In this document: one piece after another, positions 1 through 8,109 of the stretch
How positions within the stretch are numbered: the first letter of the stretch is position 1
How the letters are laid out: each line of letters begins with the position of its first letter
DNA from: a virus
Taxonomy: Duplodnaviria > Heunggongvirae > Uroviricota > Caudoviricetes
DNA: 12,607 bases
Virus record (IMG/VR): IMGVR_UViG_2695420412_000012
Direction: 5' to 3' (one strand)
Notes under the pieces: model-generated
What the model was told of the DNA's origin: nothing
Seen by the model: the letters and a program-made list of their open reading frames with translations, nothing else
The model's database searches: none
Position numbers and translations under genes: made by a program

Positions 1-135
1 GGCTGCCAGCCCTCTTTCAGTTTGTGTGTCAGCTTTTCCGCAAGGTCTGACGGCGACGCCGCCCTGACAACATCATAATGTTTAAATGTCATTATTCCTC
101 CCGGCCGGGATAGTGTATTAAATCAGATATGGAGT

Positions 136-180
136 GGGCTGTAGTCCGGAAGCCTGAATGACACACGGGGACTACAGCCC
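136..180. repeat. Perfect 12-bp inverted repeat (gggctgtagtcc / ggactacagccc, 136-147 and 169-180) around a 21-nt loop
   Basis: Read directly from the sequence; the arms are exact reverse complements. No ORF of 60 aa or more covers it. Confidence 0.5.
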
Positions 181-276
181 AAGAAATGAAAAAAGGCCAC
201 GCAGTTGCGCAGCCTGATAAACCCTGGTTAAAATCCACACGATAACAACACAACAATATCAGTATCTCATGCTATT

Positions 277-301
277 GCCCGAACCCATTCGGGCATTTTT
301 T
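277..301 (+). terminator. Rho-independent terminator (gcccgaa-ccca-ttcgggc followed by attttttacc)
   Basis: 7-bp GC-rich stem, 4-nt loop, then a T-run on the + strand. Confidence 0.55.
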
Positions 302-307
302 ACCCAT

Positions 308-338
308 AAAAAATGCCCCTCCGGAGAGGGGCATTTTT
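308..338. terminator. Bidirectional rho-independent terminator (A-run, atgcccctc-cgga-gaggggcat, T-run)
   Basis: Perfect 9-bp stem flanked by an A-run upstream and a T-run downstream, so it can terminate either strand. It would end the leftward (minus) late/accessory transcript. Confidence 0.65.
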
Positions 339-535
339 GCATGCACATTCTTTTTCTTGCATGGTGCCGGGTGCCTCCCGGTGAATTCAGTATCAGCACC
401 TGAATCCGCGATTATCACATATACCTACTTGCTGATTGCCCCTCCGCACAGGGGGATTCACCATGCAGTAGTATTTTTAATAAACAGCAAATAAAAAAAT
501 CAAGCATTATGCAGGCTGTTTCTTTTTATCACCGG

Positions 536-667
536 CTACAGCAATACCACAATGCCGCAGACCAGCACCCCATCCGCCAGCACCGACATGATTCTGCTGG
601 TGAAATCCACCATCACCACCAGAAACAGCAGGAGTGCAGCCACAGCCAGGCGCAGTTTTACCGTCAC
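536..667 (-). CDS. Small hydrophobic peptide, 43 codons from GTG (VTVKLRLAVAALLLFLVVMVDFTSRIMSVLADGVLVCGIVVLL)
   Basis: Hand-translated ORF. Its GTG overlaps the TerB-like stop in a GTGA arrangement; mostly hydrophobic residues consistent with one TM helix. Not in the ORF track because it is under 60 aa. Confidence 0.25.
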   Translation of the reverse strand: MTVKLRLAVAALLLFLVVMVDFTSRIMSVLADGVLVCGIVVLL

Positions 668-1059
668 AGGTGATTCTCCAGACGAAGACCCAGAACACCG
701 GCAATCTCTTCCAGCACCTTGCGCTCTTCCGGCTCAATTTCGCCGTCTGCCTCCGCAATGGCCACCGCCACATCCAGCACATCTTCCGCTTCACGCGTAT
801 CGTGTTTCACATCCTCGATCTCACGTAACGCCGCACGACGACCAGTTTTAAAGTTCGTATCCAGCTGACCGATAATGGTTGCGCTAATCGCATTAATTTC
901 TGACGTAAACGCGGACAGCGCAGGCTGATTACGCAGTACCTGTTCGATCTTCGCTTTCTAGGAAGCCTCACATTCACCATCTGCACAGGCCACCAGGTAG
1001 GCAGCATTAATAACCGCCTGTGCCAGATCGCGTTTCTCAAACTTTCCTTTTTCCGGTTA
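664..1059 (-). pseudogene. TerB-like (tellurite-resistance TerB fold) gene remnant interrupted by in-frame stops
   Basis: Minus-strand translation reads ...FEKRDLAQAVINAAYLVACADGECEAS*KAKIEQVLRNQPALSAFTSEINAISATIIGQLDTNFKTGRRAALREIEDVKHDTREAEDVLDVAVAIAEADGEIEPEERKVLEEIAGVLGLRLENHL*. The two ADGxxxxxE-type motifs resemble the TerB fold. There is a TAG at 958-960 and a TAA at 1057-1059 in frame, and no ATG in the frame. Confidence 0.4.
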
Positions 1060-1159
1060 ACGTGACACACCAATAACTCTTGTCGAAAAAGCCAGCAAGC
1101 TGAAAGACCGGTATTCACAACCACCAGCGCGTTTACTGTACTGGCGTGATTTCAGTCAT

Positions 1160-1183
1160 AAAAAAACCCGCCTGGCGACGGGT
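1160..1183 (-). terminator. tR'-like intrinsic terminator downstream of the late promoter
   Basis: On the minus strand, hairpin cccgtc-gcca-ggcggg followed by a T7 run (+ strand A-run at 1160-1166). Confidence 0.6.
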
Positions 1184-1218
1184 GTAAAAAATCTTCTAAC
1201 GTCAGGCATAAAACGCCC

Positions 1219-1258
1219 ATCGTTAGGGCAAATTTACCACAGATTCGGGAAAAATCAA
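1219..1258 (-). promoter_or_regulatory. Lambda-type late promoter pR' with pause/qut-like element
   Basis: Minus strand has TTGATT (-35, + coordinates 1253-1258), a 16-nt spacer, TAAATT (-10, 1231-1236), then ttgccctAACGATggg. This resembles the lambda pR' region as I recall it (ggtaaatttgactcaacgatggg). It lies directly 3' of Q. Confidence 0.6.
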
Positions 1259-1263
1259 CAAAG

Positions 1264-2085
1264 CTATCTGGTCACCTTTTTCAGTTGTTGTTCTGCCCAT
1301 GCTTCTTCAATATCAAACTGCACCACCAGCGTATCGTAAAAACGTTTAACTGTTTTTTTCCATGTATCAAGAGATATGGCATCGGTTACATTACATATGG
1401 CATTAAATGCCTCCGTTGAAGGTAATCTTTCATAGCCACGACCACCACAACGCTGGCAGTCTCTGATAACAGGCATACCACGTTTTACCGACTCTTCACG
1501 ATGAATGGCAACACCGCGCCCACGACAATCTTTACAGGCGGTGGAAACCTCCCCCTTCCCTCCACACTCCGGACAGGCAACTTTTACCACCTCCCTGACT
1601 TTTTTCCATTCCTCCCAGTAAGACGGATACACGCCTTTTGTGCACTTTGCCCACACTGGCGGCTTACCATCCGGATACTGGATCTTGTTTGTAAAAACCT
1701 CGCTTTCAATAAATTTTTTTCCGTGACAACAGGGGCACTGTTTTTTGCTCGCCGCGCTACGGGCATAATCTTCAAACGCATACGAAGCCATAATACGCAT
1801 CACTGCCGGTTTTATTTCTGCCGGGAGTTTTCTTAACGCCGCCACGCGATCACACCGACTGAGTGCATATTCTGTCAGCAATTCTGTTGCCCGCTCTCTG
1901 TCATTCATACTAATGCCCATTTTCCCAAGGAACGCAGAAAACCCCATCTCAGCCCAATTCTGTGTCATGCCCTGCGCGGCCATCACATCAGTGATACTCA
2001 GCGTATCTTTCGACGTTGAGGCCGATGCATCAGTCAGGCCGAGGGATTTTGGGGAGTAGTATTTCGGTAAATCTTCCAGTTTCAT
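1264..2085 (-). CDS. Q: Late-gene antiterminator Q (lambda Q family, 273 aa, with multiple CxxC zinc-binding pairs)
   Basis: ATG at 2083-2085. N-terminus ...YSPKS...TDVMAAQGM... and C-terminus ...LPSTEAFNAI...VKRFYDTLVVQ parallel lambda Q. Cys pairs CPCCHG, CPECGG, CKDCRG, CQRCGG. Followed by the pR'-like promoter. Confidence 0.9.
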   Translation of the reverse strand: MKLEDLPKYYSPKSLGLTDASASTSKDTLSITDVMAAQGMTQNWAEMGFSAFLGKMGISMNDRERATELLTEYALSRCDRVAALRKLPAEIKPAVMRIMASYAFEDYARSAASKKQCPCCHGKKFIESEVFTNKIQYPDGKPPVWAKCTKGVYPSYWEEWKKVREVVKVACPECGGKGEVSTACKDCRGRGVAIHREESVKRGMPVIRDCQRCGGRGYERLPSTEAFNAICNVTDAISLDTWKKTVKRFYDTLVVQFDIEEAWAEQQLKKVTR

Positions 2086-2468: not shown

Positions 2469-3500
2469 TTACCCAAGCACGCCGGTTGCAAAGGCGTGAT
2501 CAAGAAAACGAAAAATTAAATCAACCTGAGAACCATGCTTTTCTTCGAACGCCAGCGGATCCGCATGAAGCTCGTTGTGATGCTCCCGACACAGCGGTAG
2601 CGTGAAAATATCGTGGGATTTTGTTCCCATTCCGCCCTGACCATGACCAATCAGGTGATGGGGATCGTCGGCTGGCTTACTACAACACGCACACGGCTGT
2701 GTCTTCACCCAGCGTGTGTATTTCTCGTTAACCCAGCGGCGACGTTTAGGTCGTTTCATGAAAGATTCCGGAGACTCAGGATCAACGGCAATGCTGACCA
2801 CCGTCTTTTCCTGTGGTGGGTTCTGTTGCTGGTGGGCGTGAGGCAGCGGCGCAAGATTTTTTGTGCGCTGTTTCAGTATGCTGGTGGCGGTCTGCTCTCC
2901 CGGTACGATGTCGCTTTCACGGTACATTGAGCGGATTTTTTCTGCACGCAACCCCAGCGAACGACGTAATACCGCTTCCGGTAGCGCGTCCGCCACCTGA
3001 TTGCGGACCGCCCACCAGGATAATTCAGCCAAAGATAATTCACGCTCCTGCGTACCGCTTATTGCGTGACCAGGCGGCTTACCATCCGGATACTGGATCT
3101 TGTTTGTAAAAACCTCGCTTTCAATAAATTTTTTTCCGTGACAACAGGGGCACTGTTTTTTGCTCGCCGCGCTACGGGCATAATCTTCAAACGCATACGA
3201 AGCCATAATACGCATCACTGCCGGTTTTATTTCTGCCGGGAGTTTTCTTAACGCCGCCACGCGATCACACCGACTGAGTGCATATTCTGTCAGCAATTCT
3301 GTTGCCCGCTCTCTGTCATTCATACTAATGCCCATTTTCCCAAGGAACGCAGAAAACCCCATCTCAGCCCAATTCTGTGTCATGCCCTGCGCGGCCATCA
3401 CATCAGTGATACTCAGCGTATCTTTCGACGTTGAGGCCGATGCATCAGTCAGGCCGAGGGATTTTGGGGAGTAGTATTTCGGTAAATCTTCCAGTTTCAT
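2469..3500 (-). CDS. Chimeric in-frame ORF: Q N-terminal 143 codons fused to the C-terminal ~200 codons of the YdfU-like protein
   Basis: 3072-3500 matches the 5' part of Q at 1657-2085; 2469-3071 matches the 3' part of the 349-aa gene at 6204-6806. The breakpoint is at 3071/3072 (gtgacc|aggcggcttacc). The 343-aa ORF reads through it. Confidence 0.7.
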   Translation of the reverse strand: MKLEDLPKYYSPKSLGLTDASASTSKDTLSITDVMAAQGMTQNWAEMGFSAFLGKMGISMNDRERATELLTEYALSRCDRVAALRKLPAEIKPAVMRIMASYAFEDYARSAASKKQCPCCHGKKFIESEVFTNKIQYPDGKPPGHAISGTQERELSLAELSWWAVRNQVADALPEAVLRRSLGLRAEKIRSMYRESDIVPGEQTATSILKQRTKNLAPLPHAHQQQNPPQEKTVVSIAVDPESPESFMKRPKRRRWVNEKYTRWVKTQPCACCSKPADDPHHLIGHGQGGMGTKSHDIFTLPLCREHHNELHADPLAFEEKHGSQVDLIFRFLDHAFATGVLG

Positions 3501-3871
3501 TTTTTGACCTGCCCTTCAAGCATTATGGGGTAAATCTTCCCCCCCAGACGTCCACCAGATACTGGCTGACCACGAACGATATTGATTTCATCAAACTGCT
3601 CATCGTCCATTAACACTCCCGCATGCGTCAGCGCATCCAGCGGTGCTTTCAGGATATTGTCCAGGTCGCGACGACGCTTATCCGGTGGCTCTGCAATCAC
3701 CTTTATCGCCAGCCTTCCGGACAGGATTAATTTCAGCCGCTGCTGGCGAACAATAAGCGCCACAGCCCGGCGATAACGCTTTCCCTCCTCCGAGATAAAA
3801 TATGTGCTGCCACGACGTCGCCAGTAGGTGTTCACCGTTGGCGGGTAAGGTAAAACCAAATCTATGAGCAT
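3497..3871 (-). CDS. rusA: RusA resolvase, divergent copy (124 aa, MLIDLVLPYPP...)
   Basis: ATG at 3869-3871. Same family motifs as the other two copies but with several substitutions (N-terminus, IKVIAEPP, KRYRRAVALIV). Confidence 0.9.
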   Translation of the reverse strand: MLIDLVLPYPPTVNTYWRRRGSTYFISEEGKRYRRAVALIVRQQRLKLILSGRLAIKVIAEPPDKRRRDLDNILKAPLDALTHAGVLMDDEQFDEINIVRGQPVSGGRLGGKIYPIMLEGQVKK

Positions 3872-5399: not shown

Positions 5400-5570
5400 A
5401 GGTAATGACTCCAACTTATTGATAGTGTTTTATGTTCAGATAATGCCCGATGACTTTGTCATGCAGCTCCACCGATTTTGAGAACGACAGCGACTTCCGT
5501 CCCAGCCGTGCCAGGTGCTGCCTCAGATTCAGGTTATGCCGCTCAATTCGCTGCGTATATCGCTTGCTGA
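5400..5570 (-). mobile_element. insB: IS1 remnant: right terminal inverted repeat plus the 3' end of insB, 171 bp
   Basis: ggtaatgactccaacttattgatagtg... is the IS1 terminal IR. The encoded tail ...[47 protein letters not shown] is the InsB C-terminus. IS1 identity stops at 5570, where Q sequence begins. Confidence 0.9.
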
Positions 5571-5820
5571 ACGCCGCCACACGATCGCACCGACTGAGTG
5601 CATAATCTGCCAGTAATTCTGTTGCCCGCGCCCTGTCATTCATACTGATGCCCATTTTCCCCAGGAACGCAGAAAACCCCATCTCAGCCCGATTCTGTGT
5701 CATGCCCTGCGCGGCCATCACATCAGTGATACTCAGCGCATCTTTTGACGTTGAGGCCGATGCATCGGTCAGGCAAGGGGATTTTGGGGAGTAGTATTTC
5801 GGTAAATCTTCCAGTTTCAT
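5416..5820 (-). pseudogene. Truncated Q (first ~83 codons, divergent allele) fused in frame to the insB 3' end
   Basis: 134-aa ORF: [30 protein letters not shown]...SRCDRVAA then IS1-derived [14 protein letters not shown].... Junction at 5570/5571. Confidence 0.85.
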
Positions 5821-6191
5821 TTTTTGACCTGCTCTTCATGCATTATGGGGTAAATCTTCACCCCCAGACGTCCACCAGATACTGGCTGACCACGAACGAT
5901 ATTGATTTCATCAAACTGCTCATCGTCCATTAACACTCCCGCATGCGTCAGCGCATCCAGCGGTGCTTTCAGGATATTGTCCAGGTCGCGACGACGCTTA
6001 TCCGGTGGCTCCACAATAATCCTGATCGCCAGCCTTCCGGACAGATTTAATTTCAGTCGCTGCTGGCGAACAATAAGCGCCACATCACGGCGATAACGCT
6101 CACCGGCTTTTGATACAAAATATGTGCTGCCACGACGTCGCCAGTAGGTGTTCACCGTCGGCGGGTAAGGCAAAACAAACTCTATACGCAT
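5817..6191 (-). CDS. rusA: RusA resolvase (124 aa)
   Basis: Almost identical to 2082-2456 except at the 3' end ([15 protein letters not shown]), where the overlapping Q allele differs. Confidence 0.9.
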
Positions 6192-6203
6192 CAGTAACCC
6201 CTT

Positions 6204-7253
6204 TTACCCAAGCACGCCGGTTGCAAAGGCGTGATCAAGAAAACGAAAAATTAAATCAACCTGAGAACCATGCTTTTCTTCGAACGCCAGCGGATCCGCA
6301 TGAAGCTCGTTGTGATGCTCCCGACACAGCGGTAGCGTGAAAATATCGTGGGATTTTGTTCCCATTCCGCCCTGACCATGACCAATCAGGTGATGGGGAT
6401 CGTCGGCTGGCTTACTACAACACGCACACGGCTGTGTCTTCACCCAGCGTGTGTATTTCTCGTTAACCCAGCGGCGACGTTTAGGTCGTTTCATGAAAGA
6501 TTCCGGAGACTCAGGATCAACGGCAATGCTGACCACCGTCTTTTCCTGTGGTGGGTTCTGTTGCTGGTGGGCGTGAGGCAGCGGCGCAAGATTTTTTGTG
6601 CGCTGTTTCAGTATGCTGGTGGCGGTCTGCTCTCCCGGTACGATGTCGCTTTCACGGTACATTGAGCGGATTTTTTCTGCACGCAACCCCAGCGAACGAC
6701 GTAATACCGCTTCCGGTAGCGCGTCCGCCACCTGATTGCGGACCGCCCACCAGGATAATTCAGCCAAAGATAATTCACGCTCCTGCGTACCGCTTATTGC
6801 GTGACCGATGACGTCAATCATCCATGCTGACAAGTTTTGGTGAGCAAGTTGCTCAAGTGATTCTGAGGTCTGGTCACGCAACTGGTTGTCGCAGTGCCAG
6901 CACAACACCATTGCGCCGGTACCATAACGGTGAATGACGGTTTCACTGTGGTGATAATCACCGTGTGGCCACTGGCAGGATTTAATATGGCGCAACAGCC
7001 AGTCAGACAGTGCACCAGCGCCGCCAGCAGCACGAATCACACGCTCATTGCTGAAAAATGGCAGTAATGATTTATCCTCCGCCAGCGGCTGGCGAACGGC
7101 AGGGACGACTCCGGATGGCAGGCCGCACATGCTTTTCGGTTCCGGCTCCACCAGCACTCGAGGATTATGAAATATCTGTATGGATTCACGGCCCGGCTTA
7201 AGGACCACCAGCCCAAGCTCAGGCACCAGAACAGGTCTAAGTAATACCCGCAC
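6204..7253 (-). CDS. YdfU-like 349-aa Cys/His-rich protein (DUF968-type, putative HNH-like nuclease)
   Basis: Full-length copy. Its 3' 600 bp is identical to 2469-3071. Confidence 0.8.
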   Translation of the reverse strand: MRVLLRPVLVPELGLVVLKPGRESIQIFHNPRVLVEPEPKSMCGLPSGVVPAVRQPLAEDKSLLPFFSNERVIRAAGGAGALSDWLLRHIKSCQWPHGDYHHSETVIHRYGTGAMVLCWHCDNQLRDQTSESLEQLAHQNLSAWMIDVIGHAISGTQERELSLAELSWWAVRNQVADALPEAVLRRSLGLRAEKIRSMYRESDIVPGEQTATSILKQRTKNLAPLPHAHQQQNPPQEKTVVSIAVDPESPESFMKRPKRRRWVNEKYTRWVKTQPCACCSKPADDPHHLIGHGQGGMGTKSHDIFTLPLCREHHNELHADPLAFEEKHGSQVDLIFRFLDHAFATGVLG

Positions 7254-7694: not shown

Positions 7695-7850
7695 TTACTC
7701 CTCAGGTTCGTAAGCTGTGAAGACAGCGACCTCCGTCTGGCCGGTTCGGATTCGTACCTCGCAGAGGTCTTTCCTCGTTACCAGTGCCGTCACTATGACG
7801 GTTAAACAGATGACGATCAGGGCGATTAACATCGCCTTTTGCTGCTTCAT
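7695..7850 (-). CDS. hok: Hok-family membrane toxin (51 aa, HokD/RelF-like)
   Basis: MKQQKAMLIALIVICLTVIVTALVTRKDLCEVRIRTGQTEVAVFTAYEPEE shows the Hok signature (TM helix, TRKxLCE, EVAxFxAYE). AAGGAG lies 9 nt upstream. An in-frame upstream ATG at 7905-7907 would give a 70-codon mok-like extension. Confidence 0.9.
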   Translation of the reverse strand: MKQQKAMLIALIVICLTVIVTALVTRKDLCEVRIRTGQTEVAVFTAYEPEE

Positions 7851-8109
7851 AGCCTGCTTCTCCTTGCCTTTCGGCACGTAAGAGGCTAACCTAGATTTGC
7901 CGTTCATAGATTGAGCCTCAGATTAATGTTAAGCGTCTTGCAGGACGCGTAATGTTAACTGGGGCTTTTCTCTATCTGCCTTTTGGTGTTCATGCCTGAG
8001 ACAGATAGCCTCAAGCACCCGCAGTCATTCTACTTAACTAAGATTTCCCCGCAAACCGTTTTTGTCCGGCACAGTAAATATCCAACTAAACCAATGGCGT
8101 TCGCTGTAT

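Follow-up and report, generated by a model that had tools for sequence, protein, structure and literature searches.

The Q antiterminator gene and its surroundings

The window is the whole stretch of DNA that was analysed (12,607 nt; IMG/VR record IMGVR_UViG_2695420412_000012). The genes near the late promoter pR' are all carried by the minus strand. The gene adjoining pR' encodes a Q antiterminator of the Q-lambda family (1264..2085, minus strand; 273 aa) and ends with a TAG stop codon (1266-1264). In a Pfam search, the 273-aa ORF matched PF03589 (4.7e-50), the family that is also matched by lambda Q and that is distinct from the Q21 (PF06530) and Q82 (PF06323) families (PMC9388147). BLASTP aligned the window Q with lambda Q end to end (32% identity, E 3e-39). 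Lambda Q was also the closest solved homologue (7ubm, 2.2e-39), with residues 1-113 and 182-273 of the window Q aligned. The intervening 68 residues (114-181), inserted where the zinc-ribbon 'arm' of lambda Q begins, contain extra CxxC pairs and a match resembling the DnaJ CXXCXGXG motif. The window Q has kept the conserved N-terminus, G39 included, as well as the C-terminal VTR. The ORF is full length, and is 99-100% identical to the Q of hundreds of prophages. More distant relatives, 260-277 aa long and 55-70% identical to the window Q, are widespread in Enterobacteriaceae and, judging from their lengths, probably carry the same 68-aa arm insertion.

Upstream of this gene the sequence is rearranged. 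An exact direct repeat of 619 nt (1658-2276 = 3073-3691) creates a chimeric ORF (2469-3500, minus strand), which starts with 143 aa identical to Q and continues into the C-terminal part of a DUF968 protein. The junction (3072/3073) was spanned by 0/5,426 complete E. coli genomes, and the Q::DUF968 chimera either arose by a rearrangement private to this prophage or is an artefact of assembly. No complete E. coli genome matched the window over its whole 12.6 kb. A third DUF968 + RusA unit (region 5416-7253, minus strand) is 93% identical to the second and is followed by a further copy of Q (5416-5820, minus strand), in which an IS1 transposase fragment takes the place of the C-terminal part. These rearrangements do not touch the intact Q next to pR'. 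Further upstream lies a sok antitoxin RNA (7845-8020, minus strand; Rfam RF01794, 112 bits). It is probably part of a hok/sok-type locus, as hokD is found in the equivalent stretch, upstream of DUF968, of a related O157 prophage.

The late promoter and its spacer

The original prediction described TTGATT-16 nt-TAAATT followed by a terminator directly 3' of Q. Reading of the minus strand confirmed this arrangement: the -35 hexamer TTGATT (1258-1253; TTGACT in lambda) begins 5 nt past the Q stop codon (intervening letters cttTG) and is separated by a 16-nt spacer (1252-1237; tttcccgaatctgtgg, that is TTTCCCGAATCTGTGG) from the -10 hexamer TAAATT (1236-1231), which is identical to that of lambda pR'. 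The letters TGCCCT separate the -10 hexamer from the pause hexamer, and this 6-nt gap is the same in lambda. A -35-like element, TTGCCC (1226..1231, minus strand), lies 1 nt upstream of the pause element and is the counterpart of TTGACT in lambda. At this segment sigma region 4 is repositioned in the loading complex of Q-lambda (PMC9388147); TTGCCC would be the equivalent site in the window, and it fits the consensus less well than the lambda TTGACT.

The composite motif TTGAYT-N16-TAAATT-N6-AACGATGGG occurs a single time in the window, even with two mismatches allowed, and was found in 0/200 dinucleotide shuffles. A generic sigma-70 promoter scan did not list the pR' site, because the -35 and -10 hexamers match the consensus at only 8/12 positions (own count; 9 for lambda pR') and the threshold of the scan was set at 9 consensus positions.

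The spacer was compared in 67 unique modules from the long-Q clades, in which Q is 59-62% to 100% identical to the window Q. The block TTTTCC(C/G)GAA(T/A)CTGTG was at least 95% conserved, and in the same modules variation was found in the 6-nt gap that follows the -10 hexamer and throughout the sequence past about +10. This is the pattern expected for a Q-binding element. The conserved spacer, of which the window element (CCCGAATCTGTG) is dissimilar to the lambda spacer, is thus the candidate Q-binding element of the long-Q subfamily.

Predicted start site, pause element and pause site

The known lambda start (44587) is the first A of AACGAT. By analogy, the same 6-nt gap after TAAATT being present, the start site in the window was placed at A1224. 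From this position the pause element AACGAT (+1 to +6) and GGG (+7 to +9) occupy 1224-1216 (minus strand) and are identical to lambda +1 to +9. From the -10 hexamer through +9, the window (TAAATTTGcCctAACGATGGG) and lambda (TAAATTTGaCtcAACGATGGG) are equal at 17/21 positions, in the same register and with the same spacing. Together with the PF03589 Q gene, this match supports the earlier reading of the site, in which pR' was taken to be of the lambda type and AACGAT to be its pause element.

Among relatives, the pause hexamer varied between AACGAT, AATGAT, AATAAT, AACTAT, AACAAT, AAAGAT and TACGAT. A2 and T6 of the hexamer, G7-G8 and T17-G18 did not vary among 39 distinct leaders; A2 and T6 correspond to the -10 positions that are most critical for sigma region 2. 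A TATG sequence at +15 to +18 (1207..1210, minus strand) fits the TNYG pause-site consensus, which is represented in lambda by TTCG at +14 to +17. With the consensus of the scrunched sigma-dependent pause given as T+14 N Y+16 G+17 (PMC9191641), the TATG places the predicted pause at +17/+18, 1 nt later than in lambda. A palindrome, GCCC-TAACGAT-GGGC (1215-1229, minus strand), brackets the pause hexamer and the predicted start; it was picked up as a weak terminator-like site by the terminator scan and is not present in lambda.

The terminator and the leader RNA

An intrinsic terminator, tR', lies at 1160..1183 (minus strand). Its hairpin, ACCCGTC-GCCA-GGCGGGT (1183-1166), is found 33 nt beyond the GGG and is followed by a U-run in the RNA (the T-run ends at 1160). 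The terminator scan gave 7 pairs (5 G-C), a loop of 4 and T7, and RNAfold returned the same 7-bp stem with its GCCA loop. The distance of tR' is unchanged in close relatives, among which at least three hairpin sequences occur.

The RNA initiated at A1224 and terminated at tR' is predicted to be 63-65 nt. Folding of the predicted 65-nt RNA with RNAfold gave -21.3 kcal/mol (z = -2.6) and three parts: a predicted 5' hairpin (+1 to +27; 1198..1224, minus strand), in which AACG pairs with CGUU and the 5' end is sequestered, a 14-nt single-stranded A/U-rich linker (AGAAGAUUUUUUAC; 1184..1197, minus strand) and the terminator. A similar 5' hairpin was predicted in 7/8 other Q-lambda-family leaders that were folded, including the first 25 nt of the lambda leader. 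In the 39 distinct variants, the pairing of the 5' hairpin was kept in 93% of cells, against 30-43% in slid-partner controls. The same variants held no compensatory double changes and column shuffles equalled the observed values, so that the 5' hairpin is plausible but unproven. In relatives with a 90-100% identical Q, the leader is nearly invariant to about +40.

Genes downstream of the terminator

The 1.1 kb between the module and the end of the window (1..1124, minus strand) would be the start of the Q-dependent transcription unit. Its contents were established by mapping onto the window the annotation of an O157 prophage that is 99.8% identical to it across 2.1 kb, by Rfam searches and with the terminator scan. 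The first gene past tR' is a TerB-family pseudogene (about 1026-664, minus strand) with an internal stop, and it is annotated likewise in the O157 relative. It is followed by a DUF3927 ORF (667-536, minus strand), an STnc100/PasD-like sRNA (492-302, minus strand), AgvB, an anti-GcvB sRNA (240-301, plus strand), and the first 92 nt of a sialate esterase gene, which starts at 92 (minus strand) and runs off the window end. The STnc100 and AgvB matches face each other shortly before the esterase gene and within the Q-dependent unit. Two terminator-like hairpins were found (329-316 and 215-194, minus strand), which would be further obstacles to a Q-modified polymerase.

Between Q and the window end (2.1 kb), the sequence is 99.7-99.9% identical to that of hundreds of E. 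coli prophages. In O157 strain FDAARGOS_293, Q is followed by the TerB-family pseudogene, DUF3927, SASA/sialate esterase, holin, lysozyme, Rz-like, terminase, portal, capsid and tail genes. The Stx2a phage Stx2_EH1910 carries the same Q, and the 231-nt segment comprising the Q end, pR' and tR' is 100% identical to the window; the module is followed there by a methylase gene, three tRNAs, stx2A, stx2B, esterase, holin and endolysin genes. Going by these near-identical prophages and phages, the late genes probably lie downstream of the module, although the window itself holds only the 92 nt of esterase.

These results bear on three earlier statements. The Q-utilisation architecture that had been expected is present: Q, pR', the pause element and tR' are all intact at the level of sequence. 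The length of about 60-65 nt that had been given for the leader agrees with the predicted 63-65 nt from A1224; the short distance that had been remarked on is not unusual, since predicted leaders of the family cluster at 53-74 nt (see below). The statement that no late genes follow was an effect of the window edge, since relatives carry lysis and structural genes after the same module: inside the window, coding and RNA genes do follow tR', and the late genes would be found just beyond the window end.

A segment of the Stx2a phage WGPS2 (L003, 4001-4087) is 86% identical to window positions 1187-1100, which take in the tR' hairpin and the following 80 nt. In Stx2a phages, this shared segment sits after an unrelated Q-like gene and two reverse-oriented ORFs, which points to a mosaic (recombination) joint at tR'.

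Leader length across the Q-lambda family

Four Q proteins were used as seeds: the window Q, a Klebsiella Q (62% identical), a 260-aa Q (59%) and lambda Q. The DNA past each Q stop codon was extracted, yielding 396 loci and 154 unique modules. A scan of one genome per species gave 2 loci and an alignment-based IMG/VR scan gave close relatives only; the diversity in Q came from separate scans seeded with the Klebsiella, 260-aa and lambda Q proteins. The terminator finder misses the long-loop tR' of lambda itself, and lambda-like leaders were therefore sorted separately by motif.

A promoter, an AACGAT-like hexamer with GG(G), a GC-rich hairpin and a T-run were common to every Q clade. Predicted leaders measured 62-66 nt in the window clade (42 unique modules), 56-74 nt in the Klebsiella type (33 unique modules) and 53-61 nt in the 260-aa type (37/42 unique modules; one of the others gave 129 nt and four had no detected terminator). 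For lambda-type Q proteins (99-100% identical; 81 loci, including lambda itself), the predicted leader was 55-58 nt at 37 loci and lambda-like (about 190 nt) at 34, while 10 were unclassified, one inspected example of which looks lambda-like. The predicted leaders cluster at 53-74 nt; a predicted tR' at this distance from the start is thus the norm in the Q-lambda family, and the 194-nt 6S RNA of lambda the outlier.

Among the IMG/VR loci with a lambda-identical Q (L325-L404), about half have a leader of 55-58 nt and a different terminator. The body of the 6S RNA would therefore be dispensable for Q-lambda function in nature.

Comparison with known systems

The best-known relative of the module is the lambda Q-pR'-qut-tR' region, in which qut comprises the QBE and the pause element and from which the 6S RNA is made. 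The two share a PF03589 Q gene immediately upstream, the -10 hexamer TAAATT, the 6-nt gap, AACGATGGG at +1 to +9, a TNYG pause motif about 10 nt past the hexamer, and an intrinsic terminator before the late genes. Lambda pR' reads TTGACT-17 nt-TAAATT-TGACTC-AACGATGGG. The window differs from lambda in its leader (63-65 nt, against 194 nt), in its Q (273 aa with the 68-aa arm insertion, 32% identical to lambda Q), in its spacer (the putative QBE, 16 nt and unrelated in sequence to the 17-nt TATTGAATAAAATTGGG of lambda), in its pause motif (shifted by +1) and in the distance at which the promoter starts past the Q stop codon (5 nt, against about 45 nt). Moron genes and sRNAs between tR' and the lysis genes are a further feature of the window type, unlike lambda.

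The window-like architecture is also found in phages with the Q of lambda itself (IMG/VR loci such as L389 and L356, with a short leader) and in phages of Klebsiella, Enterobacter, Citrobacter and E. coli with a 'long Q' of 260-277 aa, which share the spacer TTTTCCCGAATCTGTG with the window. As in the window, both groups have predicted leaders of 53-74 nt, starting with a 5' hairpin of AACG and CGUU and ending with the terminator; they differ from the window in the sequence past about +10 and in the terminator hairpins. The Klebsiella-type and 260-aa groups have the -10 hexamer TAATTT and the -35 hexamer TTTACT, unlike the window. No experimental studies of short-leader lambda-Q modules or of long-Q phages were found in the literature.

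The Stx phages 933W and Sakai (Sp5/Sp15) use a Q of another family. Their pR'-tR' region resembles the window module in having a constitutive late promoter that is terminated early in lysogens, releasing a short RNA. There the RNA is StxS, a 258-nt primary transcript that is processed by RNase E to 74 nt (PMC7547250). The late promoters of phages 82 and 21 belong to equivalent cassettes (Q, promoter, sigma-dependent pause and terminator; PMC9388147), with other QBE arrangements. An alignment with lambda, 82 and 21 had been proposed as a check of the module. Lambda and the window agree at 17/21 positions. Phages 82 and 21 are not relevant for this purpose, because their Q proteins (PF06323 and PF06530; PMC9388147) share no homology with the window Q.

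Interpretation of the module

The module is very probably a Q-lambda-type cassette that controls the late genes of a lambdoid E. coli prophage. The mechanism is that described for Q-lambda (PMC9388147 and PMC9191641); for the window its steps, from promoter activity and the position of the pause to Q binding and read-through, are inferred by homology with lambda. RNA polymerase carrying sigma-70 would initiate constitutively at pR' (about A1224), and sigma region 2 would re-bind the -10-like AACGAT (+1 to +6) on the non-template strand. The complex would scrunch and pause near +17/+18, at the TATG. When Q is not present, the polymerase would escape and terminate at the hairpin and U-run, 42-65 nt from the start, releasing an RNA of 63-65 nt. 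After induction, Q (1264-2085) would be made, would bind the conserved spacer between the -35 and the -10, and would be loaded with NusA on the paused complex, forming a nozzle on the RNA-exit channel. The modified polymerase would then read through tR' and further terminators into the morons (TerB, DUF3927, sRNA and esterase) and on into the lysis and morphogenesis genes. Features counted against this explanation were the spacer unlike that of lambda, the 68-aa arm insertion in Q, the match of pR' to only 8/12 consensus positions, TTGCCC, which is weaker than the lambda TTGACT, and the rearranged surroundings with a pseudogene as the first gene downstream.

A chance resemblance to lambda pR', with a hairpin that merely terminates the Q transcript, would account for the lack of a score in the generic promoter scan, and a terminator is expected anyway after the last gene of an operon. 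This explanation is hardly credible: the composite motif was absent from all 200 shuffles, the match to lambda is in the right register, and the same architecture follows Q across the 154 unique modules of four Q clades, a family-wide conservation that effectively refutes it on sequence grounds. It is far less improbable, while still quite unlikely, that the cassette is intact in sequence and functionally dead, a relic from which at most the short RNA is made. The Q::DUF968 chimera, the IS1-truncated Q and a pseudogene as the first gene downstream indicate that the prophage may be rearranged or defective, or the assembly chimeric. The chimeric junction is missing from the complete E. coli genomes, the internal stop in the TerB-family gene is shared by relatives, and the window stops before any lysis gene. 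Against a dead cassette stand the full-length Q, the perfect identity with Stx2_EH1910 over 231 nt, and the near-identity of the 2.1 kb from Q to the esterase gene with prophages that have complete late operons; all elements of the cassette are intact.

A different question is whether the pR' leader of 64 nt has an additional role in lysogens, as a trans-acting, Hfq-binding regulatory sRNA resembling StxS. StxS shows that pR' leaders can be regulatory, and its authors propose antiterminated phage promoters as a source of sRNAs (PMC7547250), so that such a role is possible; we regard it as unlikely in the window. The predicted architecture (5' hairpin, A/U-rich single-stranded linker and terminator with a U-tail) is sRNA-like, and the leader is nearly invariant to about +40 in relatives with a 90-100% identical Q. 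The pause elements are, however, enough to account for the conservation from +1 to +18, the close relatives differ too little for selection to be told from recent ancestry, and the 5' hairpin is without compensatory covariation. Searches for known RNAs did not favour this role either. Rfam gave no match at gathering thresholds within 1160-1260, and no paper was matched when the leader sequence was used as a full-text literature query. HnrS (EcOnc10-12), a 66-nt multicopy prophage sRNA, was ruled out because the leader has no 15-mer complementary to mazF; a complement of at least 11 nt to the mazF 3' end (last 15 nt) was absent from the window and from a related 30-kb prophage (L001). PasA-D were ruled out as well: these sRNAs adjoin esterase or holin genes, and the leader is not at the positions given for them in a 2026 preprint. 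PasD is related to STnc100 according to the same preprint, and STnc100 matches 302-492, not the pR' leader.

A broader version of this idea would make the two-hairpin leaders of 53-74 nt across the family, including that of the window, stable Hfq-associated sRNAs that are constitutive in lysogens and regulate host or phage genes, with the hairpin selected for stability. We consider this somewhat more doubtful than a regulatory role for the window leader.

Implications

As a member of the Q-lambda antitermination systems the cassette, though uncharacterised, is ordinary and mainly confirms textbook biology. For the family, the comparison indicates that the 194-nt 6S leader of lambda is atypical, with tR' placed 53-74 nt out in most Q-lambda-family phages, many of them carrying the Q of lambda itself. 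For the 'long-arm' Q subfamily (260-277 aa), candidate control elements are now defined, namely the spacer, the pause hexamer and the TNYG site. At least one Stx2a phage has the identical module ahead of stx2AB, and its strength and responsiveness to Q would there bear on toxin output. A regulatory leader sRNA, if real, would add to the phage-encoded regulators of Shiga-toxin-producing E. coli, given that stx2AB lies behind the identical module in some Stx2a phages.
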